Positions 20,087-37,948 of a stretch of 43,084 bases of DNA are shown piece after piece (positions within the stretch are counted from its first letter, which is position 1; each line of letters begins with the position of its first letter). This stretch comes from a virus. Taxonomy: Duplodnaviria > Heunggongvirae > Uroviricota > Caudoviricetes. The notes below the pieces were generated by a model. That model was not told where the DNA came from. It saw nothing but the letters and a program-made list of their open reading frames with translations, and ran no database searches. The position numbers and the translations under genes were made by a program. The stretch lies in the IMG/VR virus record IMGVR_UViG_2778261355_000014, positions 1 through 43,084 of that record; one strand, written 5' to 3'.

Positions 20087-21346
20087 TTACTGCCCGGCAA
20101 TAACGATGCCCGTATATTCAGGAACAAGTACAGAGCAGCCGTACAGAGTGGTGAAACGCGCAGTGGTTACGCCTTTGATGTGGTCGAAGGCGTAAGACAT
20201 AATCAGCGTAGCGCCCTGCTCGGTGGTTGCCGTCATTACCTGTGGACCCTGACCAGTCGGGAACGCCAGTTTGCCGTACATCAGCTCAACAGAACCATCA
20301 GCCCAGAACAGGTTAGCAGGTGCTGCGTTCTTGTTGAGAATGGTGATTGCTGCAGTTTCTGCCGGCTTGGCATCGACGTTTGCATATGGACGGCTCGCAA
20401 CATCGGCATTTCCAACAGGGAGAATCTTTGGAGAGATTGTTACGGTGGTTCCTGCTGTGTCTACTGCCAGAACGCGGAATACCTGCGGCTGCCCGGTGGT
20501 ATCTTTGGTGATCTGGTGTACGGAATTCACACCTGCGATGGTAAACGCATCGCCAACCTGCAAGCCTTTAGCAGATACCGTAATGGTCCCCTGTCGGTTA
20601 TCAACAGGCATGCCATTTGAATCTTTCGCTTCAACCTTGTGTTCAGGTTGATTTGATACTGTCAAGGTTTCAGTGCTTCCTGCCGGTAATCGACCGGAAA
20701 TATCGGTCTTGTAGCTATCAAAGGAAGCAACCGGAGGGATCTGCGCTTTTTCGTATGCTGTCAGGGTTGCGCCCTGAGCGTAGGCACGGTGACCAAGCTC
20801 GCCAGCAAGGTCTTTGTAGTTGAATGGGTTCCAGAAAGAGCGACGGTTGATACCCTGAGGTACACCAATCGCCGTCATGGTGGCATCAATATCTGCCGCA
20901 CCATTCCACAAGGCAAGGCCCCGTGAGCCATTTTCTGAGGCAGGAATTGCGACCACGTTAGTAGCACGCTGCGTGACCATGGAAATCAGGTCAGAGTCAA
21001 TCTGTGCAGCAAGGCGCATACCTGCGGCTCGACCAGCTTCAGTTTTATGTTCCGGGTCACGCATTTCACGCGCATCCAGAGTGTACAGAATGTTTTTCGG
21101 CTCCTTGAACACAGAAGGAACAAGGCGCTGAACCAGTGCTGTTGGTGTTTTTTCGCTGAGGTCCAAGCCCTCCTCAATGTTCATGTGGTAATGCTGCGGA
21201 CGATACAGAACATCACCTGCTCGCTGCATTGCTGTATCACCGGGACGGAATTTTTTAGCGTTACGGGAAACTACGCAGGCGGCCTCAAAGCCTTCAACGT
21301 AGTTTTCGAACATGATTTCAAGGTCTTTTGCTAATTGGTTAGCCAT
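20087..21346 (-). CDS. Major capsid (coat) protein, P22 gp5-like
   Basis: 419-aa ORF following the scaffold gene; strong RBS. Confidence 0.85.
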   Translation of the reverse strand: MANQLAKDLEIMFENYVEGFEAACVVSRNAKKFRPGDTAMQRAGDVLYRPQHYHMNIEEGLDLSEKTPTALVQRLVPSVFKEPKNILYTLDAREMRDPEHKTEAGRAAGMRLAAQIDSDLISMVTQRATNVVAIPASENGSRGLALWNGAADIDATMTAIGVPQGINRRSFWNPFNYKDLAGELGHRAYAQGATLTAYEKAQIPPVASFDSYKTDISGRLPAGSTETLTVSNQPEHKVEAKDSNGMPVDNRQGTITVSAKGLQVGDAFTIAGVNSVHQITKDTTGQPQVFRVLAVDTAGTTVTISPKILPVGNADVASRPYANVDAKPAETAAITILNKNAAPANLFWADGSVELMYGKLAFPTGQGPQVMTATTEQGATLIMSYAFDHIKGVTTARFTTLYGCSVLVPEYTGIVIAGQ

Positions 21347-21364
21347 GCTTAATGCTCCGATAGG

Positions 21365-22258
21365 TTATTTTTTTGCCTTTTTAGCGGCGAAATACGGCGT
21401 CCAGTCACCAGTTTCCAGCGCCTTGGCTTTCAGTTTGTCGAGGTTATTGATTACTGCGCCGTTGCTCCCCTTAACTGTCGGGGTTGTGGCTGCCGTGGTT
21501 TTTGCTTTTGGCATGATTCTGGCCTTCGATTCGATACGTTCCAGCAGACGACCAATTGCTACGGGGTTGGTAGCTTCTGCCAGTTGCTTGCGCAGTTCAG
21601 CGTTGCGACCAAGCGCCAGAACAACGATTTCCGGCTTCTCTGACTCAAACAGGATCGCGCTTTGTGTCTCGATGGGGATTTCCTCGAGTACGGCCTGTTC
21701 TGCTTCCTGATAGCCAGGAACCTTGAGAGCCTTAACACGTTGCTGATATTTGGATAATCGCTCTTGATAGGCAGCCTGAAGCTCCTGCTCCTTCTGCTTG
21801 CGAGCCATCTCCTGTTGCTGGTACTTGCCGTTATCCTCTGCCCACTTAGCCATGCGTTGCTGGTAGATTTCTTCATCGAAACCGATGTCCTCATCGTCCA
21901 GTTTTGGCATTCGCGGTGGTTGAGTGATTACCGGCTGCTGCTCGACGGGTTTCTGAGACTGACGCATCAGCTCTTTCAGCTCGCGGTCTTTCTCTTTAAT
22001 CGTCTTGCGCAGGTGTTTTACCAGTCCATGCTCTGCGCCATCTTCGCTGGTTGGCGAATCCAGCTTTTCGTCACCAAAGTAGAATTCCTGTTCTGATTCG
22101 TCGTCATCAGTTTCAGTAGCTTCCTCTGCATCATTGCCGGAGGACTCACTGCCATCTTCTGTTTCGACTTCTTCAGCCAGTTCGACATCATCAGGAATCT
22201 GCTCTGATGTATCGGTTTCGATTTCAACTTCTGGTGTGTTTTCTGCCATCTGGTCCAT
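21365..22258 (-). CDS. Scaffolding protein, P22 gp8-like
   Basis: 297-aa highly charged protein with acidic N-terminus and helical C-terminus, between portal and coat. Confidence 0.8.
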   Translation of the reverse strand: MDQMAENTPEVEIETDTSEQIPDDVELAEEVETEDGSESSGNDAEEATETDDDESEQEFYFGDEKLDSPTSEDGAEHGLVKHLRKTIKEKDRELKELMRQSQKPVEQQPVITQPPRMPKLDDEDIGFDEEIYQQRMAKWAEDNGKYQQQEMARKQKEQELQAAYQERLSKYQQRVKALKVPGYQEAEQAVLEEIPIETQSAILFESEKPEIVVLALGRNAELRKQLAEATNPVAIGRLLERIESKARIMPKAKTTAATTPTVKGSNGAVINNLDKLKAKALETGDWTPYFAAKKAKK

Positions 22259-22348
22259 TTGTTACCCCTGTTTACTCGATGTTCAGCCCATCGGAAGGCA
22301 ATAGGGTGCCAGGCCTCATAAAGACAGCCATTGCACGTTATGGGTTAA

Positions 22349-24547
22349 TTACTGCTGTGGTTGTTGCTGAGTTGATTTTTGCAGGATGCTGTTGATGTCC
22401 ATGCGCTGCGCATGGCCCTGCGCCTGACTCTTCAGGACAAGCTCTGCATCAGCACGGGCATTGTCTCCTTGCTGTTGCTGGAACTGTCCGAGCAGTTTCA
22501 GAGCCTCGCGGATATCAGATTTCTGCTGACTATCGGCAGATGCGAGGATTTTCACAACATTTGCCGCAGCAACCTGAGCATCAGTCTGTGCCTGGAATGC
22601 TTTAACCTGAATGGCTGCCTGTTCGTTCTGCGCTTTCTGCAATTCAGCCTGACCAGCCAGAAGCTGACCTTGCGCTGCAACCATAGCCGGATCCGGCTGA
22701 CTGGCCTGTTGTTGTTTCGCCTGCTCAACCATCTGCTGTTCTTCTGGTGTTCTCGGCTTGATAACTCCAGACAGAAGCAACTGATTGCGGTTGTATTCTT
22801 TCAGGTCTTCCATCCCTTCGCCGTCCATATTGTCGAGAATAAGAGACGATACAAGGTCATGCTTCGGCGTTCCCGGTGGGATAAGTGCCAGCATGGAAAG
22901 TAACGACTTAACCGTTGCATCACGGCGAGTAGCGAACGACTGACCAACATCGACAGTCACTTCATAGTTACCCTGCGAAAGGTTGTTAAGAGCGATAACC
23001 TGCCCTGTCTGACGGTCAACCACTTCACCAGTCATCAGCGCCACGTCATCGCTGCCGTCCTCATTAACGATACGCATCGGCGTATCACTTCCATAGACCT
23101 CACGCGCCATAGAAAGCCACACAACGCCAGCGCGACGCATGGATTTAGCCATGTTGTCCATGTAGATATAGGACTGCGTGTCCATCCGGTTAAAAATGCT
23201 ATCAACGGTATCGGTGGCGACGTTGCTCGGCATGTTCTCAAGCTGCGACGCACCTGTAATTTGCTGAATAGCCGTTCCGGTGTACTGCAATAGCCCGGCA
23301 AGAGCAGGAGGCATTTGTGTCGGAGGTGTCCAGCCAGCAACCTGAGCCTCTGAAATGACCGTTCCGTTTTTGTCCTTCTTGCTGGTCATGGGAAGAACTG
23401 CAGGTCTTTTCTTATTCCTCTCTGCCCAGTGATTCATTAATGGACCGGGAATGAAATCAACATCCACGATAGGAATGCCATCACCGCCAGCCTGAGTAGC
23501 GTTATCTGCAATCATGGAAACCATCAGGTTCTCAAGACGCTGTGCATCCATCGCTTTTGCAGCGTGGCCTTCGATTCGCTCCTGATTATCAACAAATGAG
23601 CGACGCCCATATACCGGGATGAGAGGAATATGTTCGCCAGGAATACGCTTCGGTTCTTCCAGCCATTCAGCGCCAGAAAGAAGACCGCAATAAACTCGGC
23701 GTTTCTTCACTGTCCGCTCGCCAATCAGTTCGAATGCGCCATCGGTTAGCTCGTCGACAATATCTTTGATTTGCTCTTCATCATAGATTGCCGTTTCTCC
23801 GCTAACAGGGTTGCGCCACGCCGTGAGCTTCACCTTCTCTATGCGAACTTCGTAGTAGCGTCCAACATAGATGGCATCGGGCGTTGACCAGTCATATTGA
23901 GTGCCAGTGTCATCACGAGAAAGGCTTGCCGCGGTGGAATCAGGGTATTCAGCCTCGAACGCTTTGGGCGTCATGGAGAACATTTCCATAGCCCACATAG
24001 CATCAGAGCGGTCATATTGCTTGCTGTCCTGATCGAAGAAGACGCATGTCGCCGGGTCGTAAACAGGAAGAAGGCTGATGCGTCGCTGCTCGTTACTTGG
24101 GTCCATTTCATCTTCGTAATCGGCACACATGCGGAAACAACCGAATCCGCCTGTTACAGCATCATCAAATGCGTTATCACACGCTTCGCCACCGGATGTT
24201 TCCTGATAGTCAGCGCGGAATTTGCCGTTCATCTTTTCGGCTAACGCTTCCGATGCCTTATCGTCCTTCGGCCTGAATTTAACGCTGATGCGATTCTGTC
24301 GATACTCGCCAATGATGCGATCACATTCACGGGAAATCTTATTCAGTTCAAAGCGCGGGTAATGCTCAAACCTGCCTTCATCAAATGAGTAACCAGCGTT
24401 TGTGCTGCCTTCCCACTGTGCGCCGGACACCCGGACGAAACGTTGAGCCTCAATAATCTGCTCACGCATATCCTGCGTTGCTGACCAGGCATTATCAAAG
24501 TTGCACAGCACCTTGCGATGCCAGTCAGTCATCTTTTTTTCTGCCAT
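22349..24547 (-). CDS. Portal protein, P22 gp1-like
   Basis: 732-aa ORF after TerL; Gln-rich helical C-terminal tail typical of P22-like portal barrel. Confidence 0.85.
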   Translation of the reverse strand: MAEKKMTDWHRKVLCNFDNAWSATQDMREQIIEAQRFVRVSGAQWEGSTNAGYSFDEGRFEHYPRFELNKISRECDRIIGEYRQNRISVKFRPKDDKASEALAEKMNGKFRADYQETSGGEACDNAFDDAVTGGFGCFRMCADYEDEMDPSNEQRRISLLPVYDPATCVFFDQDSKQYDRSDAMWAMEMFSMTPKAFEAEYPDSTAASLSRDDTGTQYDWSTPDAIYVGRYYEVRIEKVKLTAWRNPVSGETAIYDEEQIKDIVDELTDGAFELIGERTVKKRRVYCGLLSGAEWLEEPKRIPGEHIPLIPVYGRRSFVDNQERIEGHAAKAMDAQRLENLMVSMIADNATQAGGDGIPIVDVDFIPGPLMNHWAERNKKRPAVLPMTSKKDKNGTVISEAQVAGWTPPTQMPPALAGLLQYTGTAIQQITGASQLENMPSNVATDTVDSIFNRMDTQSYIYMDNMAKSMRRAGVVWLSMAREVYGSDTPMRIVNEDGSDDVALMTGEVVDRQTGQVIALNNLSQGNYEVTVDVGQSFATRRDATVKSLLSMLALIPPGTPKHDLVSSLILDNMDGEGMEDLKEYNRNQLLLSGVIKPRTPEEQQMVEQAKQQQASQPDPAMVAAQGQLLAGQAELQKAQNEQAAIQVKAFQAQTDAQVAAANVVKILASADSQQKSDIREALKLLGQFQQQQGDNARADAELVLKSQAQGHAQRMDINSILQKSTQQQPQQ

Positions 24548-24548
24548 T

Positions 24549-25964
24549 TCAACCTACACCACAAGGAATTGAGTAACTGGAATAGTCGGGTTGCGCAGCC
24601 GACTCCGGGCAATGCATACACATCATCAGCGCATCAGCCAGGTTAGGAGATGGAATACCGAGCTTCTGCTTCATTTCGACCTTAGTCATAAGCTCCAGCT
24701 TCCCGTTGTTATTGAATTTGCGCTGAATCTGCGTCAGTTCTGCAAACAGCTTCTCCAGCATCTTCTCGCCTATCGCTTCTTTGTCGAAACTCAGCATGTC
24801 GTCGGGGTCTGCATACTCACCGTGGACAACCGCCCGATATGTCAGATACAGCCTGTCAGCCAGCGCGTAATAGAATTGCGCTCGCTTATTGCGGAACACA
24901 TCACCAATAGTGCGAACGTTGTCGCCCTGTACGACTTCATCAGCCCATGCTCCGGCCTGATACGGCGCATCTTCATCGAATGGCGATTCGCTGCCCTTGA
25001 ACATCGTGGCGGTGATTTTCTTGCCGGAGAACGCTTCCGTTGTCTGTCTGCGTAGCCCGGCACCAACACCATCACCATCCCACAGGTAATGGTCAGAGCC
25101 GTCTTCAATCGCCAGCGAAGTAGCCCAGTCAGCACCCTCGTTGATGTCCATCAGCAGACCTTCGGCAATGCGCTTAACTACCGAACCGTGACGCGATGCA
25201 TAACCTTTAGCATCTGGCCCTGTATCTGATGGGTCATGCGCAGAAACAACAGCGCCTTTCGCTTTCCATCCGAGTTTCTTGTGCGCATCGGTTGCAGCTT
25301 CAAGCCATTCTCGTTTGATGATTGCCATATCACTTGCGCTTACCGGCTCACCAAGCCAGATGTGACGATACAGTGTCGGATTTCTGCGTTTACACTCTTC
25401 CATCTCCAGACGGAGAACTTCAGGAAAATGCGGATTGTCGGTGTAGTTCACGGTTAGCAGACAAATATCATCGGGAGGATTTACGACGAATCGCTGATAG
25501 GTATCGTCGAGGATGTTTTTCGGGTTAAAGCTCACCCATATTTCGGAAAACGGCTTGCGGATGGTTGGTATCAGGATATCCCATGATTCCTTCGTTACCG
25601 CTTCCGCTTCTTCCACCCAGCAGATATCAATGCCTTCGAGCGATTTAATCTTCGTCGGGTTGTTTTTGATGCCGTAGAACATGAACTCAGCATTCGTTCC
25701 GAGATGACGAATCATGGAACGCTGAATTTCAAACTCAGCCGAATACCCTTCACGCTCGATGGTATCTTCAAGCAACCGGATTACCGAATCGCTGATACTG
25801 TTTTGCAGTTCACGAGCGCAGAGAATACGCACAGGCTGCCGACGCGCCGCTTCAACAAGCAGCCTCGCAATTGCCCATGATTTGCCGCTACCTCGACCGC
25901 CTTTGGCGACTTTGTAGCGATGCGCCTCAATGAACGGTTCAAAGATAGGATTAATCGAGGTCAT
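24549..25964 (-). CDS. Terminase large subunit
   Basis: Walker A VAKGGRGSGKSWAIA near N-terminus; 471 aa; Sf6/P22-like as recalled. Confidence 0.9.
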   Translation of the reverse strand: MTSINPIFEPFIEAHRYKVAKGGRGSGKSWAIARLLVEAARRQPVRILCARELQNSISDSVIRLLEDTIEREGYSAEFEIQRSMIRHLGTNAEFMFYGIKNNPTKIKSLEGIDICWVEEAEAVTKESWDILIPTIRKPFSEIWVSFNPKNILDDTYQRFVVNPPDDICLLTVNYTDNPHFPEVLRLEMEECKRRNPTLYRHIWLGEPVSASDMAIIKREWLEAATDAHKKLGWKAKGAVVSAHDPSDTGPDAKGYASRHGSVVKRIAEGLLMDINEGADWATSLAIEDGSDHYLWDGDGVGAGLRRQTTEAFSGKKITATMFKGSESPFDEDAPYQAGAWADEVVQGDNVRTIGDVFRNKRAQFYYALADRLYLTYRAVVHGEYADPDDMLSFDKEAIGEKMLEKLFAELTQIQRKFNNNGKLELMTKVEMKQKLGIPSPNLADALMMCMHCPESAAQPDYSSYSIPCGVG

Positions 25965-26401
25965 TTTCCGAATAGAGTGCTCATCGGTGATGTTTCAATC
26001 TGGATTGCGCCGCCGTCTTTGCCTGTTAGCTCGTGATCAACCTTGTCGCGCCATTTATCCTTCTGTCGGTTCTTAAGCCAGAAAATGGCAGCAGTTGTAT
26101 CAGGCGGGTAATACTTCTCAAGCGGAGTTTCGACAATTCTGTTTTCAATAACACGAATATCGATATCTGGAGCCACGAAGCCCATAGCGCGTTGATAAAG
26201 ACGATCACTAACTTCTGCATCAGCGACGGCCTTACCCTTTTTTATGGACTCCGAAAACTTAGGATAATCAAGCTTCCACTTGTTAATAGTTGACTCACTG
26301 ACCTCAAAGAAATCAGCAAGTTCTGCATCGGTGTAGCCCAGCAAGCACAGTTTGCGTGCCTGTTCGGCATACGCCTCTTGATACTTTGTTGGGCGCGCCA
26401 T
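25961..26401 (-). CDS. Terminase small subunit
   Basis: 146 aa with N-terminal HTH-like LGYTDAELADFFEVSESTINKWK; start/stop overlap with TerL. Confidence 0.8.
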   Translation of the reverse strand: MARPTKYQEAYAEQARKLCLLGYTDAELADFFEVSESTINKWKLDYPKFSESIKKGKAVADAEVSDRLYQRAMGFVAPDIDIRVIENRIVETPLEKYYPPDTTAAIFWLKNRQKDKWRDKVDHELTGKDGGAIQIETSPMSTLFGK

Positions 26402-26403
26402 GT

Positions 26404-26646
26404 TTATGCTCCGGTAGTGAACAGGTCTAACGCTTCCTTCGATTTACGCACCGCTTCGATAGTGCGGGTCGTGATATCTGAATTAGCGCCACCTGACTGG
26501 AAGTGAATTTTGAATAGCTCAAGCTTCAGTTCGTCAGTGCCAATGAACTGAAATGCTTCCTCTGCTGCTGCGTTCTGGTTCATGACCAGCTTGTAAATCT
26601 CTAACTGGAATTTCTGTTCTTCAGTCATGGGAATAATCTCTGCCAT
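26404..26646 (-). CDS. Hypothetical 80-aa protein upstream of terminase
   Basis: ORF directly abutting terS. Confidence 0.45.
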   Translation of the reverse strand: MAEIIPMTEEQKFQLEIYKLVMNQNAAAEEAFQFIGTDELKLELFKIHFQSGGANSDITTRTIEAVRKSKEALDLFTTGA

Positions 26647-26902
26647 TGTTGGCTCCGTTTATCCGTTAAAAGGGATATCAGTTAAGTTATCCCGTGTAGG
26701 GTATAAGCCATTGTCGAGACCACTCATTGAATGGTCTCTGCAATAACCGATGTCTTTCCATCAGTCCGCCACCACAAAGAATCTTTTTTGCCATCAGGCA
26801 GGAGGTTCATCTTTCAGTGGCTGCCAGTGTTATTTCCCCACTTACTGGCTTGGGTTGTTTCGCGGTACTGCCGTAATGCAAAAACTGGATTAACCTGCGA
26901 AA

Positions 26903-27433
26903 TCACACCATTCCGGGCAAATACATTTGCACTTCATTTGCCGCTCTCTCACGTGCAACATGAAGCAATCTTTTTCGCCCACCAACGCCCCACTTAGCCA
27001 TTTGGCTTGCGCACTGGCTTATCGCTTTGGTTTCAGTATTGATGATGTGATCGATTCTATTCAGACGGGACATTGCGCCAACGCCGAGACGGACAACCGT
27101 TTTGAAAACTTCATAAACTTCGATTTCAAATTCCGGCTTAATCCATGCTGCATATCTGATTGCCAGAAGTTCAACACCCCACACACCTGGTTCTGCACCA
27201 CCTTTGATTATTTTAAGTGGTTGAATTTGTTCCAAAGTGCTTTTTTGCACTTTGGCCTCCAGTGCTTTTATGAAGCGTTTTATCTGCGCGCTACGCAAAA
27301 ACTGGCTTGGGCGCTGTTGCTCTGTAGCCTCTCCATTTGCAACTGCTGCTGCATGGAGATCGTTTAAGTTGTAGCGTCCATCCTCATCAACACGAACGGA
27401 CACACCATTGACAATAACTGTTGGGTACTTCAT
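26903..27433 (-). CDS. KilA-N domain protein
   Basis: N-terminal VIVNGVSVRVDEDGRYNLNDLHAAA motif typical of KilA-N. Confidence 0.6.
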   Translation of the reverse strand: MKYPTVIVNGVSVRVDEDGRYNLNDLHAAAVANGEATEQQRPSQFLRSAQIKRFIKALEAKVQKSTLEQIQPLKIIKGGAEPGVWGVELLAIRYAAWIKPEFEIEVYEVFKTVVRLGVGAMSRLNRIDHIINTETKAISQCASQMAKWGVGGRKRLLHVARERAANEVQMYLPGMV

Positions 27434-27778
27434 CAGTGATTACCTTTTAGTGATGAACCTTGTCACACAGGATTCCGGCCCACAGAAAGGCACCGATTAC
27501 CAAACCGGCATCCTCAAGGGTCATCCTGAAAGGCTCTGTGTTCATAAGTCGCGCGTGTGAAGCGCGTTTGTTGCAGATATAAAAAAGCCCCGCGAATGCG
27601 AGGCTAAATCCTGGTATTTGTAATGACTGGCTCTTATCTCAACGCAGCCCCTTACCGCGCGCCATATGCTTAACTTCAAGCATCAGCAATGAGATGTTTA
27701 ATCTGGTTTCACTCCAGAAGTGATCACCACCCTGTCTACAGAGCCAGATGTGAAGGATGATGAGTAAAATTATCGCTA

Positions 27779-28216
27779 TCATCGAAGGCATTGCGTCCTG
27801 ATGTACTCCTGCAGGTAGTTAACCTGCGCGGTTATCCTGTCGATTCCACTTCTGAGACGGTAATAATTGAGTTCAGCATCTGCTGTAAGTCTTGGGCTTT
27901 CTCCATCGCCCATGCTGCTGGCTCCGGTCGTTGACTTTGCACAGGTGGCGGCGACTTGCAGGCGCTTACGACCAGCAGAAACATCAGCACGGAGACTTTC
28001 GATAGTCGCGTTAGCATCAGCAAGCTCCTTTGTGTATCTGGCGTCGAGTTCTGCTACATCACGTTGACGCTTCTGCATGTCAGCAATTGTGGATGCGGCC
28101 TTATCGCGCTGCTCTTTGTAGGCGATGGCGTTATCACGGTAGTGATTAACAGCCCATGACAGGCAAACGATGATGCAGATAACCAGAGCGGAGATAATCG
28201 CGGTGACTCTGCTCAT
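27779..28216 (-). CDS. Rz: i-spanin Rz
   Basis: [31 protein letters not shown]... matches lambda Rz as recalled. Confidence 0.95.
27832..28023 (-). CDS. Rz1: o-spanin Rz1 (embedded in Rz, +1 frame)
   Basis: Lipobox VVSAC followed by proline-rich segment; nested within Rz as in lambda. Confidence 0.85.
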
Positions 28217-28689
28217 ACCTCAATCTCTCTGACCGTTCCGCCTGCTTCTTTAAATTTTGCAATCAGGTTGTCAGCCTTATGCTCGAACTGACCATAACCA
28301 GCACCCGGCAGTGAAGCCCAGATATTGCTGCAACGGTCGATTGCCTGACGAATATCACCGCGGTCAATCATCGGTAAAGCGCCACGCTCTTTAATCTGCT
28401 GCAATGCCACAGCGTCCTGGCTTTTCGGAGAGAAGTCTTTCAGGCCAAGCTGCTTACGATAGGCATCCCACCAACGGGAAAGAAGCTGGTAACGTCCGGC
28501 TGCTGTTGATTTGAGTTTGGGGTTTAGCGTGACAAGTTTGCGAGGGTGATCGGAGTAATCAGTGAATAGCTCCCCGCCAACAATGACGTCATAACCATGA
28601 TTTCTGGTTTTCTGCCGTCCGTTATCAGTTCCCTCTGACCACGCCAGCATATCGAGGAACGCCTTACGTTGATTATTGATTTCCACCAT
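28213..28689 (-). CDS. R: Endolysin R (lytic transglycosylase)
   Basis: [39 protein letters not shown]... near-identical to lambda R as recalled. Confidence 0.97.
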
Positions 28690-28996
28690 CTTCTACTCCG
28701 GCTTTTTTAGCAGCGAATCGTTTGATAAGCGAACCAATCGAGTCAGTACCGATGTAGCCGATGAACACGCTCGTTATATAAGCGAGATTGCTACTTAGTC
28801 CGGCGAAGTCGAGAAGGTCACGAATGAACCAGGCGATAATGGCGCACATCGTTGCGTCGATTACTGTTTTTGTAAACGCACCGCCATTATATCTGCCGCG
28901 AAGGTACGCCATTGCAAACGCAAGGATTGCCCCGATGCCTTGTTCCTTTGCCGCGAGAATGGCGGCTAACAGGTCATGTTTTTCTGGCATCTTCAT
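28673..28996 (-). CDS. S: Holin S
   Basis: [39 protein letters not shown]... near-identical to lambda S including dual-start MKM. Confidence 0.97.
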
Positions 28997-29238
28997 GTCT
29001 TACCCACAATAAGGGGATTTGCTCTATTTAATTAGGAATAATGTCGATTACTGATAGAACAAATCCAGGCTACTGTGTTTAGTAATCAGATTTGTTCGTG
29101 ACCGATATGCACGGGCAAAACGGCAGGAGGTTGTTAGCGCAGCCTCTTGCCACCCGCTTTCACGAAGGTCATGCGTAGAATGCCGCAGCGTAACTATCAC
29201 TGATGAATTCAGGATAGCCAGTGGCTACGGCTCAGTTA

Positions 29239-29314
29239 TGGTGCTGGTTAACGGACTTGAACCGCTACCCATTCGCTTACAAGGCGACTGCTCTACCATT
29301 GGAGCTAAACCAGC
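29239..29314 (-). tRNA. Phage tRNA, predicted tRNA-Thr (anticodon TGT)
   Basis: Hand-folded cloverleaf: acceptor GCTGGTT/AACCAGC, D-arm GCTC-CAATGGTA-GAGC, anticodon loop CTTGTAA, T-arm AGCGG-TTCAAGT-CCGTT, encoded CCA; one G-A mismatch at the anticodon stem base. Confidence 0.6.
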
Positions 29315-29319
29315 ATATT

Positions 29320-29394
29320 TGGCGGGACAGCGTGGACTCGAACCACGATAAGAAGGTTAACAGCCTTCCGTAATGACCTTTATACGACTGACCC
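29320..29394 (-). tRNA. Phage tRNA-like gene, predicted anticodon GTT (Asn), degenerate D-arm
   Basis: Perfect T-arm CGTGG-TTCGAGT-CCACG and anticodon arm GAAGG-CTGTTAA-CCTTC, encoded CCA; T-T mismatch in acceptor stem and weak D-stem. Confidence 0.45.
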
Positions 29395-29484
29395 AAATAA
29401 AAAAAGCACCGTTGCAACTTAAGAGTCACTAACGGCAGCTTATGCCAATAGTGTTGCTCATTTGCTCAATGATGTCAACACGTT

Positions 29485-29973
29485 CTATGCTACATGTTTA
29501 ATTTTCTCTACACGTTTCCGATTTTTAAACGCACTATCCAGAACCGGGTAAATCATAAACAACGAGGCATTAAGGATTTCGTCAACTTCCCGTCGACAGG
29601 TTGCGAGCGATGGTTTTTGAATGCGCCCGCCGCCACGGCATAACATCTTGCGAGGTCTTGCGACGCGATGATAGTAAGATGCAATGGCGTGCTTGGAAGA
29701 GCCATGAGCGTAGTAGCTGAGGAGGATTCCAAAGGCTTTCTTGTCAATGTACATGACGGAATCGACGACCTGAGAAATCAACATTCCATCATCATCATTA
29801 CACATTGGCCTTGTCATAACTCTTCCCGGCTCTACGCTCTCCATGAACTTAGCTATTACGCTGCTCATGCGCTTTTCCAGACGACCTGAATAAACCCATG
29901 CTCCCCACAGTTCAAGCCAGCCATTCAGCCACTCGTGCTGCTCTTTGGTGAGGTTTAGTTCTCTTATGCCCAT
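29485..29973 (-). CDS. Late-gene antiterminator Q (DUF1133-type)
   Basis: 162 aa with [12 protein letters not shown] and [15 protein letters not shown] motifs resembling E. coli prophage QuuD-type Q as recalled; sits directly upstream of the lysis cassette. Confidence 0.7.
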
Positions 29974-30635
29974 GCGCCTTCTCCCTGTACCTGAATCAAT
30001 GTGAGGTTTCCGCAGAACACTGCGCCGGTATCGATATACATCTGGTTGGCAAATTTGAGTGGTTTCACTGCTGGCGTATGACCAAAGATGAGCGTGTCCG
30101 CGCCTTTGATTTCTTTCACGATCCCGTCTTGTGAGTTGCTGATTCGTTCGCGGTTCCAGATTACCTGCTGATGATCAACTGGCTTTCCAAACTCGTATTC
30201 GTCACAGGGATAATCGGCGTGGCAGATGACATATTTTTTACCTTCGCTCACCAGTTCGATGATTAACGGAAGTTCATCTGCTTTATGGGCAAGAGCTTTA
30301 GCCAGAATTTCTTTGTCGTAATCGAGATTAAAGAACCAGCCACCGCCATTAAACAGCCAGTGATTGACGTTTCCACGCTCTGATAAGCCATCAATCATCA
30401 TTTGCTCATGGTTTCCACGTACAGCTCGGAACCAGGGGAATGTGATTAATTCCAGACATTCGACGTTCTCTGTACCGCGATCAACCAAATCGCCCACCGA
30501 GATAAGCAGGTCTTTTTTGGTGTCGAATCCTATCGTCTCCAGTTTTTTCATCAGGTTCGTGTAGCATCCGTGCAGATCGCCAACTACCCAAACATTTCGG
30601 TATTTGCTGCCATCAATTCTTTCGTAATAGCGCAT
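29964..30635 (-). CDS. Ser/Thr protein phosphatase (lambda PPase / NinI-like)
   Basis: From [32 protein letters not shown]; metallophosphatase GDLHG, GDLVDRG, GNHE motifs; ORF track start is an upstream extension. Confidence 0.95.
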
Positions 30636-30819
30636 CTCTTTCACTCCATCCGCGATGAACCATGAGAACGTCGTTGACGATGGCGTGCATTTTCCCGTCT
30701 TTATCATCAACGTATTTTCTTACCGTGCCACGACTACATTTCAGTCTGCGTGCTACTTCTGTCTGGTTTCCGTATGCTTCAACGAGCATGTCTGGAATGG
30801 TTTTTACTGAGAACGTCAT
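30613..30819 (-). CDS. ninH: NinH
   Basis: [37 protein letters not shown]... matches lambda NinH as recalled. Confidence 0.95.
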
Positions 30820-31421
30820 GCGGCCTCACTTCTGCTATTTCGCAGGTCTTTGAGTTTCTGTTGGTACTCTGCCTTGATCGCCTTGCACTCTTCGATAGTC
30901 CAGCGATGGCGGCTATGGTTTGATTCGATTTCGTCTACTGCTTCCTGCCCGATGCGGTTAATCAGTTCGACGCGATACGGAACGAGATTTCCGCTTTTGT
31001 GCTGGTTGCACACCACGCATTGCTTGTGAATATTGCGTTCATCAAATCGGAGTTGAGGTGCCGCAGCAGTTGTCCGGTAATGTCCGGCATCCCACTGAGC
31101 AGACGTGAGCGTTCCGCACGAGATACATGGTAAGTCGCGGTCTCTTTCTCTGATGAAGGCGTTTACGGCTTGTTGGGCTTGCTTAATCCAGTAACTGCGG
31201 GGCTTTAAGGCGAGTTTTCGAATCTTAAGTTTATCTTTCTGTTTCTGTTCATCTCGTCGTCGTTTCTTCTCTGCTGCTTTTTCCGCTTTTTCGCGTTCTT
31301 TACTTCGTCGTTCGAGTGCTAATTGAGTTCCGTGTTCCGGGCAGCACCACCACTGATTTGAGAATGCCGGGTGAAACCATTCCTTGCATATTTTGCATTT
31401 CCTTCGCGCTGGTTTAGCCAT
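30816..31421 (-). CDS. ninG: NinG (Rap) recombination protein
   Basis: [31 protein letters not shown]... matches lambda NinG. Confidence 0.95.
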
Positions 31422-31590
31422 CGTCTTCTTCCTCGTACATTGAGCTATTCGGATCGCTCATCAGTTCTGCACAGCAGTGCTCACATACGTGAACTTCCAG
31501 CACATGCAGCTTCTGACCGCAGTTAGCGCACGTTAAAGCCCGCTCGACGCTTTCTTTCTGGTATTGAAGGGATTGGGATGGGCTAAGCAT
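31414..31590 (-). CDS. ninF: NinF
   Basis: From [46 protein letters not shown]; 58 aa as in lambda. Confidence 0.9.
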
Positions 31591-31990
31591 GGCTTTCACC
31601 ATTAAAAAGTCGCTTGTAAGCATCAATGTCTCGTTTTGCTTCACCGAGCTTTCGTCTTAATTCCATGTTTTCTGATTCAAGCTTTTCCATGTCTTGTTGG
31701 TATCGATCGCGGTGTTCTTTCCATGCTTTTCGATACGCCTTCATGTATGTCGTTTTGGCCTTTCTCTTTGCCTGACGAACAGCGTGATGGTTTTCTACAA
31801 ACCACTCAGGGTCGTTAAATGCTGCTCTGGCGCATGTAGACAAATAATTTGCGGCCTCCCTGTTTAGCCAACAAATACTGATAAATGGCAACTTGATAAG
31901 CACCATTTTTCGTTGAGACTCTTTCTCGCCAAACATGTGCCATTTTTTGATGCTAAGGCCAAATCCAGGTTGAATTAAAAGCATTGTCAT
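31583..31990 (-). CDS. Hypothetical 135-aa nin-region protein inserted between ninE and ninF
   Basis: ATGA overlap with ninE stop; GAGGAA RBS; basic/coiled-coil C-terminus; not part of lambda nin set as recalled. Confidence 0.5.
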
Positions 31991-32163
31991 TTCCTCGCAC
32001 GATGTCTTAGCCACCGGATATCCCACAGGTGAGCCGTGTAGTTGAAGGTTTTTACGTCAGATTCTTTTGGGATTGGCTTGCATTTATTTCTGGAGCGTTT
32101 CGTTGGAAGGTATTTGCAGTTTTCGCAGATTATGTCGGTGATACTTCGTCGCTGTCGTCTCAT
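31987..32163 (-). CDS. ninE: NinE
   Basis: Hand translation [58 protein letters not shown]; matches lambda NinE; ATGA overlap with ninB stop. Confidence 0.85.
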
Positions 32164-32570
32164 TCGTACCTCCTGTCGGTAAATCTGACACCCTGACCAA
32201 TAGCCCAGGCTGTCGTGTACTCAATCAGACTTGCCATGCGCTTCACGCTCATCTGCGCGCTGCTTTCGCGAATGTTGACGTATTCGCCTTCAAGCCCTGG
32301 CAAAACATCAGCTTCCAGGTTTGTTGCCACTGCATGACCGCTAATCAACAAAACCTTCCATTGTTCCGGTTTTAACCATTTGCCGCACCATTGAACCTGA
32401 CGAGCGATATCCGCCAGCATCACGTGAAATTTTGCGTTCTGGTCAAGGTTGCGCTTGTAGTCAGTAATGCGGATGGTGACTGGCTTGTCTTTATCGAGTG
32501 GTGTTGCGAGGATGGCATTTATTGCGGCTTGCTGTTGTTGCTTAGTTCGGAGGAAGATTGTTTGCTTCAC
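32160..32570 (-). CDS. ninB: NinB (Orf-family recombination mediator)
   Basis: 136 aa with [24 protein letters not shown] motif similar to lambda NinB. Confidence 0.8.
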
Positions 32571-32581
32571 TGAATACTCCT

Positions 32582-32773
32582 TTATTTTTTATGCCTGTAA
32601 CCCCATTCTTCCAGCAACCTTGCGGCGTACCACCCAAGAAACAAAGGAAAGAACATTACAATGAGATATTCCCCGCCACGGTCAATGTTCGAAATTGACC
32701 AGATTACGATGTAACCAGTGCAGGACAGGAATATTACAAACCCCAAAAAGCTACTTCGTCGACTCATGCTCAC
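32582..32773 (-). CDS. Small membrane protein (nin region)
   Basis: 63 aa, two hydrophobic helices. Confidence 0.4.
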   Translation of the reverse strand: MSMSRRSSFLGFVIFLSCTGYIVIWSISNIDRGGEYLIVMFFPLFLGWYAARLLEEWGYRHKK

Positions 32774-33090
32774 TCCTTCACTTTGATTCCAGCAGCGCGG
32801 ATGTTTTCCTCATAAGCATCCATTGCATCACCGAAGCCATTGGAATAATCAACAGTAAACCCTTTGGCTAATGCTTCTCTGCTGTCGATAAACTTTGGCG
32901 CGGTTATTTCAATAGCTGCTCGCGATGCCTGCCACGTTTGCCAGTGGCCTTGAACATCGTCCATCACGTATTGACCACCAATATCACCACTGCCAATTTC
33001 ATGGTGATTTTCAGGGTAACGGATAAGGTCTGAGGATTCGCCTCCACGTCGCAACCAACTTTCTTCAAACTGCTTTCTTGATTCGTCCAT
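32770..33090 (-). CDS. Hypothetical 106-aa protein (nin region)
   Basis: ORF with start/stop overlap to neighbour; acidic. Confidence 0.45.
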   Translation of the reverse strand: MDESRKQFEESWLRRGGESSDLIRYPENHHEIGSGDIGGQYVMDDVQGHWQTWQASRAAIEITAPKFIDSREALAKGFTVDYSNGFGDAMDAYEENIRAAGIKVKE

Positions 33091-33107
33091 CGATACTTAC
33101 CCTCAGT

Positions 33108-33314
33108 TCAACTCACAAAACGCCACGCCATTTTTGCTACAGTGACAGGCATAACACCGATAATCACCCACAGGAAAATGCTACCGAAAAGCACACCCAC
33201 CAGGTCTTTACCTTCGCCTACCAACCGGACAAAACTGCTGGCAACAACAATGAACGTCGCCACCATCCACATAGCACCGAGAATCCTCAATGCAGAGAAA
33301 ATTAACTCAGCCAC
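33108..33314 (-). CDS. Small membrane protein (nin region)
   Basis: 68 aa, two hydrophobic helices. Confidence 0.4.
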   Translation of the reverse strand: MAELIFSALRILGAMWMVATFIVVASSFVRLVGEGKDLVGVLFGSIFLWVIIGVMPVTVAKMAWRFVS

Positions 33315-33330
33315 GATTTACCCTCCCCCA

Positions 33331-33360
33331 AATAAAAAGGCCTGCGATTACCAGCAGGCC
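33331..33360 (-). terminator. tR2-like rho-independent terminator between replication genes and nin region
   Basis: Minus-strand hairpin ggcctgctggtaatcgcaggcc followed by tttttatt. Confidence 0.65.
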
Positions 33361-33386
33361 TGTTACAAGCTCAGTGATGTAGATGG

Positions 33387-34763
33387 TCATACGTCAGCCC
33401 CTTGTGCATATCGTCTGCCACGCGCAGCAGGTGCATTTGATGCTGTGCAAATCTGTCTGGCTTCATCCTGGTCACATGCAACAAAGTGTCCGTTGCAGAA
33501 CCGCTGGTAAACCGTACCAAGCGAGCCAAAACGGTTTTTCGTCACGATGATTTCAGCAAATGGCGCGGCGCTACTGTTCTCGTCATATACAGCTTCCCGA
33601 TAGAGCATGATGATTGAGTCTGCGTCCTGTTCAATGCTTCCAGAATCACGCAAATCTGCGTTTGTCGGGCGTTTGTTTGGTCGCTTCTCAACATCGCGCG
33701 AAAGCTGACTCAGGGAGATAACAGGCGTTTTCAGGTCTTTCGCCATCGCCTTCAGGCTTCCGGAGATGTGAGCAATTGCGAGGTCGTTGCGGTCTGCTTT
33801 CGGCTTCTCAATCAGGCCAAGATAATCCGCCATGATGAGTGACAGGTTTGGATTTTCCTGTTTATGCCGTTCTGCGATTGAGCGTATTTCTTCGACCGAT
33901 AACCGCGAGGCATCGACTACCCATACATCCAAATCTGCAAGCTGACTCATACCGTTAGCAACACGTGCCCAGCCTTCGTCATCCATCGATGCAGGATTTC
34001 GCAGCACACTAACCGACATCCTCCCGGCGTTGGCAATGCTTCGCTCTGCGATCTGCAATGCGCTCATTTCCATTGAGAAAATCAACACTCCGCGCCGGAC
34101 GTCAGAACCAGGAATAACGCGGCTTGCAACGCCTTCGGCAATCTTCAGCGCCAGCTCGGTTTTCCCCATACCAGGACGAGCAGCGATTATCACCAGGTCT
34201 TCCGCGTTCATCCCTCCGGTGATAGCGTCAAGTTCTTCGATTCCGGTCTTCAGGGTATCGGACTCTTCTCCGTTCCTCAGACGCCTGTCAAGCGTGTCAG
34301 TGTAGTCAGTAATGATTTCCCCTAACCGTACAGGTTTAACCTCGTCACGGGGCTTTCTGATGGCTGAAAGACGCTTTACAAGCTCATCCATCGCCTGACT
34401 CGATGCGTCGATGGTTCCGCTCTGAATTGGTTCACGCATTTCATCCATGATTTCCAGCATCAGACGGCGGTGATAGTTATCCGCGACCATTCCGGCATAT
34501 CCCTTCAGGTTTGCGGCGCTCGGGCAGTTTTTGCTGGTCATCAGGATTGACGTGAAATGCTCCTCTCCGCACGCCTCGGCAACCATCAGCGCGTCGATTA
34601 GGTTTCTGTTTCTCGCCTGCTTGCGGATAACCTCGAAGGCTTTCCTGTAGAGCGGAATTGAAAACGCTTCCGGCTCCAGCGTTGCCAGAACGTCGCTGGC
34701 GGTTGGTGTTAATCCACCAATCAGCAGTCCACCGATAACGCTCGCTTCGATATCCTGTTTCAT
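33387..34763 (-). CDS. Replicative DNA helicase (DnaB family; P22 gene 12-like)
   Basis: Walker A ARPGMGKT and DnaB-like motifs; 458 aa. Confidence 0.9.
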
Positions 34764-35707
34764 GCAATCCCCCTGTCTGCAAACTTCCCTTCCCGCACTC
34801 CCGTTAACGAATCTTCCCTCAGCAGGTAATCAAAATCTGCCGTCCAGCCCGTGTCGTTGTCTCCGAAGTAAAACGGCTTGGCCTGATGCACAAACGCCCT
34901 GACATACGCTCTGAAACCGTCCACGTTTGGCGTTTTCAGTTGCGGGATGATTTTCTTCAGGCGGCGTTTTCGTTTCTCGTTGACCGCAACAGCGTGTGGC
35001 AATCTGTCACCGACTTCGGTGTTGTAGGCGTTCAGGAAGGATTCGTAGTCGATTCGTTCTGCCTTGCGACGTTCAGGTTTAACCTGCCCATCGCCTCCCC
35101 CATTGGGGGGTAGGGGGGTATTATTTATATTCTTGTTAATACCTTCTTGTTCATGATGTGCGGTTGTTTGTGCGGCTTTATGTGCGCTTTCATGTGCGGC
35201 ATGTACGCTGGAAGCCGCGCCATTACTGGCTTCATCATGTGCGGCATCATGTGCGGTTGTTTGTGCGGCTTCATGTGCGGGTGAATTGTCCATTTTTTGA
35301 GCATATTCATGGTAATTTGTGATAGTGATCACACGACCTTTTTGCTTCTCTCCATCAATGGAGATCATCCCCTCTTTCACAAAAACCTGAAGCATCCGCT
35401 CAACCTGATCACGGCTTGCTGGCTTGCCATGTCTGTCGCATAACTGAAGACCTAAATCAGCTGCTGTCACAACCAGTTGACCGGGTTGCAGATGCCATTC
35501 ATGACCTTTGAAATTCGCTTTGTATGGCTTTCTGGCGGCATTCAGGAGAAGGTTTTCCCACAGGGTGCGAAGATAAACATCTTTCGCCCATGACTGTTTC
35601 AGAATGCTCCGGTACAACGGAATGTAACCAGTTTTCTGGTTCTCCATCCTGTTGCTCCTGCGCTCGTGTGCGGCGCTGAAATCGTAGATTTTTGCTGTAT
35701 TGCTCAT
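34760..35707 (-). CDS. Replication initiator (lambda O / P22 gene 18-like) with embedded ori iterons
   Basis: 315 aa at the position between cII and the helicase; central His/Ala-rich segment encoded by the iteron repeats. Confidence 0.75.
35154..35281. repeat. Origin iterons: 8 copies of a ~12-bp unit ending TGTGCGG, in two clusters of four, next to an AT-rich tract
   Basis: catgatgtgcgg, ttgtttgtgcgg, ctttatgtgcgc, tttcatgtgcgg, then catcatgtgcgg x2, ttgtttgtgcgg, cttcatgtgcgg; AT-rich tattatttatat at 35119-35130. Confidence 0.75.
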
Positions 35708-35709
35708 AA

Positions 35710-35982
35710 CTACCTGCCTTGACGAAAGACCTTAAGAACATCGTTAAACTGACTTACGGATATGTCTTCTTTGAGAAGCTTTTCCAGAAATGCGTTTGGA
35801 ATGAACGTATATCCCTCCTCTTTTGGTAGAGACGGGAGCAACGCCCTCGCCTCAGCCTTCAGAAGCTCAGTTCTGGCAACTTTCACAAAAGAGATTTGAG
35901 TTCTTTCATCAATGGAACGAAGGAAGCGCAAACGCTTAGCTTCTTTGTGTGTATCAGGTGGATTAAAGCCTTTGTTTCGCAT
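35710..35982 (-). CDS. Hypothetical 90-aa protein between cII and the O-like gene
   Basis: Start taken at MRNKGFNPPDTHKEAKRL just after cII stop; longer ORF-track start overlaps cII and is unlikely. Confidence 0.4.
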   Translation of the reverse strand: MRNKGFNPPDTHKEAKRLRFLRSIDERTQISFVKVARTELLKAEARALLPSLPKEEGYTFIPNAFLEKLLKEDISVSQFNDVLKVFRQGR

Positions 35983-36004
35983 ATAATTACCTCGTTGGAT
36001 GTTG

Positions 36005-36298
36005 TTAAAATTCCATTTGTATTTGATCAGAACGCTCGGTTGCCGCCGGGCGTTTTTTATTGGTGAGAATCGAAGCAACTTGTCGTGCCAATCGAGCCAT
36101 GTCGTCGTCAACGACGCCCCATTCAAGAACAGCAAGCAGCATTGAGAACTTTGGAATCCAGTCCCTCTTCCACCTGCTGATCTGCGACTTATCAACTCCC
36201 ACAGCTTCCGCTGTCTTCTCAGTTCCAAGCATTGCGATTTTGTTAAGCAACGCACTCTCGATTCTTAGAGCCTCGTTGCGTTTGTTTGCACGAACCAT
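36005..36298 (-). CDS. cII: Transcriptional activator CII
   Basis: MVRANKRNEALRIESALLNKIAMLGTEKTAEAVGVDKSQISRWKRDWIPKFSMLLAVLEWGVVDDDMARLARQVA... near-identical to lambda CII (97 aa). Confidence 0.95.
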   Translation of the reverse strand: MVRANKRNEALRIESALLNKIAMLGTEKTAEAVGVDKSQISRWKRDWIPKFSMLLAVLEWGVVDDDMARLARQVASILTNKKRPAATERSDQIQMEF

Positions 36299-36357
36299 AT
36301 GTAAGTATTTCCTTAACAAATAAGAAGTTATGCGCATCAACTTATGCGCGTTGTATT

Positions 36358-36399
36358 CCCGCATTTCGGCGGGAATGAGGACCATGACTGTTAAAGAGC
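36358..36399 (-). promoter_or_regulatory. nutR (boxA GCTCTTTAACA plus boxB hairpin CCCGC-CGAAAT-GCGGG)
   Basis: Minus-strand copy of the same boxA/boxB pair found at nutL; located between cro and cII. Confidence 0.7.
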
Positions 36400-36406
36400 A
36401 ATTTGC

Positions 36407-36592
36407 TTATGCCGCTTTGCGGTAAGCGCTTTCTTGATACTTCAGGGCGCCAGCTGTAACGACTTCCAGTCGATAGGCGTCTTTCTCTGGGATGACTTCC
36501 TTCCACTGAGAGACTGCTGCGTCGCTAATGCCTAGCGCTTTAGCTACAGCACGCTGGGTTCCGAAGTGGTCGATAACATCTTTCTTGTACAT
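36407..36592 (-). CDS. cro: Cro repressor
   Basis: 61-aa HTH protein (QRAVAKALGISDAAVSQW) divergent from cI across the operator region. Confidence 0.8.
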   Translation of the reverse strand: MYKKDVIDHFGTQRAVAKALGISDAAVSQWKEVIPEKDAYRLEVVTAGALKYQESAYRKAA

Positions 36593-36599
36593 AGACTCG

Positions 36600-36668
36600 C
36601 TCCGAAATTAAAGAACACTTAAATTATCCACTAAAGGAATCTTAAGTCAAGTTTATTTAAGATGTCTT
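36600..36668. promoter_or_regulatory. OR/PR-PRM operator region with three P22-type operators
   Basis: AATTAAAGAACACTTAAATT, ACTAAAGGAATCTTAAGT and ATTTAAGATGTCTTAACT half-site pattern between cro and cI. Confidence 0.65.
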
Positions 36669-36672
36669 AACT

Positions 36673-37323
36673 ATGAAAACTCAATTGATGGGAGAGCGCA
36701 TTCGCGCTCGGAGAAAAGAACTCAAGATCAGGCAGGCCGCACTTGGAAAGATGGTCGGCGTGTCTAATGTTGCCATATCTCAGTGGGAACGCTCTGAGAC
36801 AGAGCCAAATGGAGAGAATCTTCTCGCCCTGGCTAATGCGTTGAAGTGTTCCCCTGACTATCTGATGAAAGGAGAGGAAAGTCTTTCAAACATTGCCTAT
36901 CACAGTAGGCATGATCCAAGAGGGTCATACCCTCTGATTAGCTGGGTGAGCGCAGGATGCTGGATGGAAGCTGTAGAACCATATCATAAGCGTGCAATAG
37001 ATAACTGGTACGATACAACCGTAGACTGTTCAGAAGATTCGTTTTGGTTGGACGTGAAGGGAGACTCAATGACGGCTCCGGCCGGTCTCAGTATCCCTGA
37101 AGGAATGATAATACTCGTCGATCCTGAAGTAGAGCCGCGTAACGGGAAACTGGTAGTTGCAAAGCTCGAAGGAGAAAACGAGGCAACTTTCAAGAAGTTA
37201 GTTATTGATGCAGGCAGGAAGTTTCTAAAACCACTTAACCCACAATATCCGATGATCGAGATCAACGGAAACTGCAAAATCATCGGCGTAGTTGTCGATG
37301 CAAAACTAGCAAACCTTCCATAA
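36673..37323 (+). CDS. cI: CI-type prophage repressor (HTH plus S24 LexA-like autopeptidase domain)
   Basis: N-terminal HTH QAALGKMVGVSNVAISQWERSE; C-terminal GDSM...KLEGE...K S24 motifs. Confidence 0.9.
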   Translation: MKTQLMGERIRARRKELKIRQAALGKMVGVSNVAISQWERSETEPNGENLLALANALKCSPDYLMKGEESLSNIAYHSRHDPRGSYPLISWVSAGCWMEAVEPYHKRAIDNWYDTTVDCSEDSFWLDVKGDSMTAPAGLSIPEGMIILVDPEVEPRNGKLVVAKLEGENEATFKKLVIDAGRKFLKPLNPQYPMIEINGNCKIIGVVVDAKLANLP

Positions 37324-37346
37324 AGGGGCATTCGCCCCTTTTTTTT
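37324..37346 (+). terminator. Rho-independent terminator after cI
   Basis: ggggc-attc-gcccc hairpin followed by tttttttt. Confidence 0.75.
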
Positions 37347-37349
37347 ATT

Positions 37350-37937: not shown

Positions 37938-37948
37938 GAGGAATTAAT

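Follow-up and report, generated by a model that had tools for sequence, protein, structure and literature searches.

A P22-like prophage integrated at argW carries the phage 21-type tRNA-Asn/tRNA-Thr pair, altered at nuclease determinants, in its late-control cassette

Shiga toxin (Stx) phages of the 933W type carry the transfer RNA (tRNA) genes ileZ-argN-argO between the late antiterminator gene Q and stx, and their expression is presumed to depend on Q. A different set occupies the corresponding position in phage 21 and Sf6, whose curated records share a single order of elements: Q; the late promoter pR', with a tandem Q21-binding element (QBE) between its -35 and -10 hexamers; the transcription start and a pause element; the terminator tR'; tRNA-Asn; tRNA-Thr; and the lysis genes. 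Here we consider a pair of tRNA genes with anticodons GUU (Asn) and UGU (Thr) in a 43,084-nucleotide (nt) stretch of viral DNA, referred to below as the window (IMG/VR record IMGVR_UViG_2778261355_000014). The pair lies in the interval 28997-29484, to which a first-pass annotation had drawn attention and which coincides exactly with the intergenic region between Q and the lambda-family holin gene S (Table 1). By sequence comparison, the pair is the known phage 21/Sf6-type Asn/Thr set. We consider it very probable that these are the tRNAs of a phage 21-type late-control cassette within a P22-like argW prophage, expressed late and serving both in decoding and as a substitute for the host tRNA-ThrU.

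The pair is annotated in reference phages and described in the literature, and is therefore already known. A 221-bp segment spanning both genes matches 71 phage records, 52 of them at 95% identity or more; many annotate tRNA-Thr and tRNA-Asn, and the matches include phage 21, Sf6, SfI, BTP1, HK446, SPN9CC and Kapi1. The same segment matches 717 of 5,426 complete Escherichia coli genomes, in which PGAP annotates the same two tRNAs, and the paper on phage SfI describes the pair in SfI, Sf6, ST64T, PS3 and phage 21. Salmonella phages L and ST64T share this tRNA-Asn without change and have it in the corresponding slot behind a Q21-like gp23, but there the second tRNA is Leu(UAA) rather than the Thr(UGU) of the window. 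The Stx phages likewise use the slot downstream of Q and pR' and upstream of the lysis genes, but with Ile/Arg rare-codon anticodons, another type of Q and a toxin gene downstream, none of which occurs in the window; with anticodons GTT and TGT and no stx, the window pair does not belong to the ileZ/argN/argO group. The first-pass annotation was thus right to distinguish the set from the Ile/Arg tRNAs of Stx phages and to report no accompanying toxin gene (the open reading frame (ORF) list has none between Q and the holin gene), but the novelty it implied does not stand, as this very pair has annotations in both Sf6 and phage 21 and has been treated in published work. As a finding, the genes themselves add little: annotations of them already exist in Sf6, in phage 21 and, in RefSeq, in hundreds of E. 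coli genomes, and functional work on the Thr member has been published. Of more interest is the question why tRNA-Asn travels with tRNA-Thr.

ARAGORN identifies three tRNA genes in the window, two of them within the Q-holin interval and both on the minus strand. The Rfam model RF00005 (Infernal; gathering score 29 bits) accepts the same two, with 55.3 bits for tRNA-Asn (E 2e-9) and 61.5 bits for tRNA-Thr (E 5e-11). The two adjacent cloverleaves that had been folded by hand on the late strand are thus recovered by both tRNA finders, in the same register and with the anticodon at position 34 in each, and the proposed assignments to TGT (Thr) and GTT (Asn) are unchanged. The tRNA-Thr, previously judged the better of the two, is the cleaner cloverleaf, although the uppermost pair of its anticodon stem is a G27.A43 mismatch. 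In tRNA-Asn, the T-T acceptor mismatch that had been noted corresponds to U4.U69 in the RF00005 alignment, and the weak D-stem to U13.U22 and to a thermodynamic centroid structure in which this stem does not form. The 3' CCA is encoded in each gene, and a 5-nt spacer separates the two. The anticodon loops (CUUGUAA and CUGUUAA) are 7 nt long, with U33 and a purine at position 37, and both tRNAs have the D-loop GG and a T-loop of the canonical GTTCRA form (GGTTCAAGTCC and GGTTCGAGTCC).

Asparaginyl-tRNA synthetase recognizes G34-U35-U36 and G73, and threonyl-tRNA synthetase recognizes G1-C72, C2-G71, G35 and U36. All of these nucleotides are present in the respective window tRNAs, which makes both genes, to judge from their features, canonical bacterial elongator tRNAs, with a mature, charged product predicted for each. 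One unusual position in tRNA-Thr is C14 (window 29301, minus strand), which replaces the near-universal A14 that pairs with U8 and is found also in one Klebsiella tRNA-Asn homolog. The phage 21 tRNA-Thr, identical to that of the window including C14, is functional in vivo (PMC12445682).

The surroundings of the pair reproduce the phage 21 arrangement (records OL657228 and AJ237660) closely. The window and phage 21 align as essentially identical from the end of Q to about 80-85 nt past tRNA-Thr: the -35 hexamer, QBE, pause element, tR' and tRNAs are identical or differ by one or two bases, both tRNAs are 100% identical, and the order and spacing of the elements are the same, including the 5-nt spacer. 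The differences in this region are one substitution (G for C) at pR' -3 and a 1-nt indel in tR'. A generic promoter and terminator consensus scan of the minus strand found neither pR' nor tR', because the -10 hexamer is weak (AACACT) and the bulged tR' stem falls outside its rules, and their positions were instead transferred by aligning the window with the curated record of phage 21. The tR' hairpin has a fold energy of -16 kcal/mol (z = -3.6), and its U-tract stops one base short of G1 of tRNA-Asn; there is no room for a separate promoter between them. With a Q21-family Q upstream, pR' with its tandem QBE, tR' abutting tRNA-Asn, and tRNA-Asn preceding tRNA-Thr, the window contains, as read from this alignment, the late-control cassette of phage 21 in full, followed by a lysis cassette (S/R/Rz) of the lambda type.

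The locus is thus a mosaic, in which a phage 21-type Q/pR'/tR'/tRNA module is joined to lambda-type S-R-Rz. Homology to lambda restarts 1-2 nt beyond the CCA of tRNA-Thr, and the same lambda-homologous trailer is found in Sf6. From a point some 85 nt downstream of tRNA-Thr, the window agrees with lambda and Sf6, with an S105/S107-type holin, whereas phage 21 has its pinholin S21 leader; the virion genes of the window also differ from those of phage 21 in being P22-like. Sf6 (AF547987) shares both tRNAs at 100% identity, tR', the lambda-type leader and holin, and a P22-like genome type, the window showing an argW context. In contrast, the promoter and QBE region of Sf6 is AATTAGCC/ATTTAGCC-like, while the QBE of the window matches that of phage 21 exactly.

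Based on this anatomy and on the publications on Q21 to which the phage 21 record refers, we suggest the following model for expression of the pair. Transcription would start constitutively at pR', 49 nt upstream of tRNA-Asn, and without Q would halt at tR' just before the tRNA gene. Loading of Q21 at the QBE and pause site would allow RNA polymerase to read through tR', and the tRNAs, lying directly in the path of the modified polymerase, would thus be the first products of the late transcript. Both tRNAs would presumably be excised by RNase P and 3' processing, and the pair would then supply ACA and AAC/AAU decoding during late-gene translation. The tRNA-Thr is likely to supplement the single, low-abundance host tRNA-ThrU in the expression of an ACA-rich phage genome and, by virtue of the altered and shortened anticodon stem of the phage copy, may also replace ThrU when a rival element destroys it with a nuclease that attacks anticodon stems (P2 Old, and probably PARIS AriB). 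In the transcriptome paper on phage BTP1, the two same tRNA genes were left out of a list of genes with more than 100 transcripts per million (TPM>100) and the lytic operon continues directly after them; this exclusion suggests that the pair is highly expressed in BTP1. The phage L paper leaves undetermined whether its tRNAs arise by processing or by independent expression. The pR'-tR' leader RNA itself (29395-29443, minus strand, about 49 nt) is predicted to be constitutive in lysogens. A short terminated leader transcript is labelled 'aRNA' in the older phage 21 record AJ237660, and in Stx phages the equivalent terminated leader reportedly yields a regulatory small RNA (PMC7547250).

Two studies published in 2025 (PMC12445682, PMC12409363) bear on the association of tRNA-Asn with tRNA-Thr, as the Toprim nucleases of rival elements that they describe attack exactly these two host tRNAs and thereby offer a specific explanation for tRNA-Asn. 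In the first (PMC12445682), P2 Old acts chiefly on Thr(UGU), and Asn(GUU) is among the tRNAs compared with ThrU in cleavage kinetics. Phage Thr(UGU) tRNAs rescue from P2 Old by resisting cleavage. The phage 21 tRNA-Thr (tRNA-Thr21) is functional from a plasmid and protects against P2-Old toxicity, its resistance being conferred by C28U/G42A and a shorter anticodon stem, and the UGU anticodon class is needed for rescue of ACA decoding in vivo. The second study (PMC12409363) concerns PARIS AriB, a related Toprim nuclease whose host substrates are Lys(UUU), Thr(UGU), again a prime target, and, as a secondary one, Asn(GUU). AriB cuts between nucleotides 40 and 41, beside a conserved U36-A-A-U39; a change at U39 abolishes cleavage, and cleavage is impaired by changes at U39, A41 or U16. 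The Lys, Thr and Asn tRNAs of T5 jointly neutralise PARIS.

Comparison of the window tRNAs with their host counterparts at these positions shows consistent substitutions in both. The window tRNA-Thr is tRNA-Thr21, identical at 76 of 76 positions. Where host thrU has CUG/CAG at positions 28-30/40-42 and a full 5-bp anticodon stem, the window tRNA-Thr has UCG/CGA, with a U28-A42 pair below the G27.A43 mismatch; nucleotides 36-41 read UAAGCG instead of UAAUCA, and nucleotide 16 is A instead of U. In tRNA-Asn, nucleotides 36-41 read UAACCU where host asnT has UAAUCC, A16 again takes the place of U16, and AAG/CUU stands in place of the paired CNG motif of asnT (CGG/CCG). The U39 of both hosts is thus G39 in tRNA-Thr and C39 in tRNA-Asn, with G41 and U41, respectively, and U39 is absent from the validated T5 rescue tRNAs as well. 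The position numbering used here reproduces the published T5-Lys mutations U39A and A41C. By this comparison, both prophage tRNAs are altered at every published determinant of P2 Old and AriB.

The pair therefore has the features of rescue tRNAs, namely the anticodons of nuclease-targeted host tRNAs combined with substituted cleavage determinants. As in the T5 and T4 rescue tRNAs, U39, nucleotide 41 and the 28/42 pair are substituted, the anticodon stem is shortened and U16 is replaced. T5 and T4, however, are virulent phages with large tRNA arrays under their own promoters, whereas the window represents a temperate phage with two tRNAs, controlled by Q antitermination and lacking tRNA-Lys(UUU). 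That tRNA-Thr resists P2 Old is experimentally backed through the published identical tRNA. Resistance of either tRNA to AriB, and any resistance of tRNA-Asn, we infer from the substitutions; tRNA-Asn would most likely act in the same substitute role, for a secondary target of these nucleases.

We tentatively propose that the Asn(GUU) and Thr(UGU) pair of Q21-type lambdoid and P22-like temperate phages may be a dedicated counter-defence module, directed against OLD-family Toprim anticodon-stem nucleases (P2 Old, PARIS AriB) of competing P2/P4-type elements, in which tRNA-Asn is also a cleavage-resistant substitute. The position of the pair directly behind tR' would mean that both tRNAs are delivered when late proteins are needed, and the proposal would account for the long unexplained presence of tRNA-Asn without a codon-usage rationale. 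Should tRNA-Asn indeed prove to be such a substitute, the anti-defence use of tRNAs would extend from the T5- and T4-like virulent phages to temperate lambdoid phages, with a bearing on phage-phage competition in enterobacterial lysogens.

We considered whether the pair might instead serve purely in codon supplementation, raising the level of decoders for overused codons (ACA, AAC/AAU) with no defence role. Codon usage was taken from the annotated coding sequences of a near-identical prophage (99.9% over window 15524-35136) and compared with 50 kb of K-12. ACA accounts for 15.7 per 1000 codons (35% of Thr codons) in the early genes and 15.0 (27%) in the late genes, against 5.4 (10%) in K-12, an approximately threefold enrichment in both sets (Fisher p about 1e-9 to 1e-14). 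Asn codons amount to 44 per 1000 in the early and 45 in the late prophage genes, against 38 in K-12. The comparison gives a clear bias for the Thr member, but for the Asn member the departure from host usage is slight. E. coli has several asn tRNA genes, which makes it unlikely that Asn tRNA supply is limiting. The ACA bias does favour codon supplementation, as do the same bias reported in the SfI paper, the status of thrU as the sole UGU tRNA in MG1655 (PMC12445682), and the use of AAC for 24 of the 25 Asn codons in the capsid gene of phage L, described in the phage L paper. In contrast, the pair is only 50/76 (Thr) and 43/76 (Asn) identical to the host tRNAs, and the changes fall on the nuclease determinants; moreover, the identical tRNA-Thr is nuclease-resistant and rescues, whereas overexpressed host ThrU does not (PMC12445682). 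Codon supplementation as the whole explanation therefore seems to us unlikely.

Several points weigh against the reading of the pair as decoding and substitute tRNAs, some of them bearing on the counter-defence role. Rescue in the screen with P2 Old was confined to Thr(UGU) tRNAs (PMC12445682). The phage lacks tRNA-Lys(UUU), the prime AriB target, so that the pair alone should not defeat PARIS. In a Klebsiella lambdoid homolog of tRNA-Asn, CAG/CUG stands at 28-30/40-42; the CNG motif is thus not missing throughout this lineage of phage tRNAs, and we ascribe its loss to the E. coli/Salmonella/Shigella allele alone. The enrichment of Asn codons is weak (p = 0.02 for the late genes against K-12) and AAC is unbiased, and the authors of the SfI paper found no reason for tRNA-Asn. 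Finally, C14 in tRNA-Thr is unusual, and the two mismatches in tRNA-Asn could reduce its efficiency.

These mismatches had led the first-pass annotation to suggest that the Asn gene might be a tRNA-like element or pseudo-tRNA. On such an account the gene would be decayed, or retained for example as a processing or stability signal in the late mRNA, and only tRNA-Thr would work; U4.U69 and U13.U22, the centroid fold without a D-stem, a fold z-score of only -1.7 and the want of a codon-usage rationale are all in keeping with it. Single-sequence thermodynamic z-scores are unimpressive for both of these tRNAs; values as weak as this are normal for tRNAs, however, and we did not count them as evidence against the gene, relying instead on the covariance model and on covariation. 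The score of 55.3 bits is well above the threshold of 29, and GUU, U33, A37, G73, the T-loop GGTTCGAGTCC and CCA are all intact. The gene is identical base for base in phage 21, Sf6, SfI, ST64T, L and HK446, and is 100% conserved in many phages of Escherichia, Shigella and Salmonella.

More distant relatives of tRNA-Asn also bear on this reading. Homologs in Klebsiella lambdoid phages are 87-91% identical, and genes of T-even-like (Mosigvirus, Gualtarvirus), Stephanstirmvirinae and jumbo (Eneladusvirus) phages are 80-85% identical, closer in each case than host asnT (43/76). Because tRNA-Asn is nearer to virulent-phage genes than to asnT, this pattern suggests a phage-borne lineage that has been exchanged between temperate and virulent phages. 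In a covariation test of the cloverleaf with seven phage sequences, standard pairs occupy 93.9% of cells, as compared with 36-46% when the partners are slid, and both sides have changed at 10 of 21 pairs; the observed values were reached by none of 500 shuffles. The compensatory changes lie in the acceptor, anticodon and T stems. Pair 4:69 is U.U in the lambdoid members, U.G in three relatives (T-even-like and jumbo phages among them) and C-G in one, so that it is weak by lineage rather than by decay, and U13.U22 is common to six of the seven homologs. These findings rule out the pseudo-tRNA reading as far as we can judge, and we consider decay of the Asn gene very improbable. For tRNA-Thr, a Klebsiella homolog has two compensated acceptor pairs, 3:70 and 6:67.

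It is equally improbable that the genes are kept mainly as a recombination or mosaic boundary, or as an integration-site remnant, rather than for their products: lambda homology does restart right behind tRNA-Thr and the slot does hold other sets elsewhere (Asn/Leu in L; Asn-Phe-Thr-Arg in a Klebsiella phage), but both genes are full length, whereas att sites typically hold a 3' fragment, the integration site of this prophage is argW, lambda yields no tRNA remnant, and strict conservation with covariation argues for selection on the RNA itself. The search for such a remnant compared the 3' end of tRNA-Thr with lambda sequence upstream of the shared block and gave a local alignment score of 18, against a shuffle mean of 17.6.

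The content of the Q-to-holin slot varies among Klebsiella lambdoid phages. In ST16-OXA48phi5.2 it holds Asn-Phe-Thr-Arg(UCU), and in phage 2b LV-2017 it holds Asn followed by a second Asn and Arg(UCU). These differing arrays indicate that the slot behaves as a variable tRNA cargo site.

Table 1. Coordinates of the late-control cassette, the tRNA pair and the flanking features in the window.
Feature	Position	Strand	Remarks
Q late antiterminator, phage 21 type, 162 aa	29485..29973	-	162/162 aa identical to Q21; RefSeq: antiterminator Q family protein
pR' -35 hexamer TTGACA	29473..29478	-	transferred from curated phage 21 record via alignment; sequence identical
Q21-binding element, ATTGAGCA + AATGAGCA	29455..29470	-	identical to QBE annotated in phage 21 OL657228
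pR' -10 hexamer	29450-29455	-	mapped from phage 21 annotation by alignment
Transcription start	about 29443	-	mapped from phage 21 annotation by alignment
Sigma-dependent pause element	29436-29442	-	mapped from phage 21 annotation by alignment
tR' intrinsic terminator, hairpin + UUUUUUUAUUU	29395..29441	-	terminator in phage 21 and Sf6 records
tRNA-Asn (anticodon GUU)	29320..29394	-	75 nt including CCA; discriminator G73; 4-nt variable loop; ARAGORN and Rfam
tRNA-Thr (anticodon UGU)	29239..29314	-	76 nt including CCA; discriminator A73; G1-C72, C2-G71; ARAGORN and Rfam
Lambda-homologous untranslated leader of lysis cassette	28997..29237	-	241 nt; aligns with lambda from 44945 to S start
Lambda-family holin S, 107 aa, first lysis-cassette gene	28673..28996	-	ORF list; RefSeq 'phage holin, lambda family' in near-identical prophage
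Host mlaA	776-1531	-	
Formate/nitrite-transporter family gene	1825-2757	+	
tRNA-Arg(CCU) = argW	2833-2907	+	attachment site
Integrase	3033-4226		
GT2 glycosyltransferase moron	4496-6241		
Tailspike	6307-8571	-	P22 head-binding domain and Peptidase_S74 chaperone domain
Ant	8672-9550	-	
sar antisense RNA	9552-9617	+	Rfam 62 bits

The leader between the tRNAs and the holin gene contains no coding gene in the ORF list. It has two structured hairpins within 29122-29231 (minus strand; z = -3.3 and -3.4), a long one at about 29182-29231 and a terminator-like one at about 29122-29151. Lambda, phage 21 and Sf6 all have the first, and the phage 21 copy resembles a terminator in having a U-run behind it, which the window copy lacks. 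The second, GGCAAGAGG...CCUCCUGCC followed by GUUUUGCC, is also terminator-like in appearance.

The surrounding genome is, on its gene content, a P22-like prophage integrated at argW. The evidence comprises an integrase beside argW, a tailspike with a P22 head-binding domain, Ant together with the sar RNA, and a P22-type capsid and portal. The layout of the left end of the window (776-9617), which includes an immI region, is that of a P22-like prophage at argW. An ORF with a KilA-N domain (26903-27433, minus strand) lies between the spanin and terminase genes. In the early region, a 3.5-kb segment (35136-38612) is absent from the otherwise 99.9% identical prophage of strain 203740 and represents another mosaic replacement.

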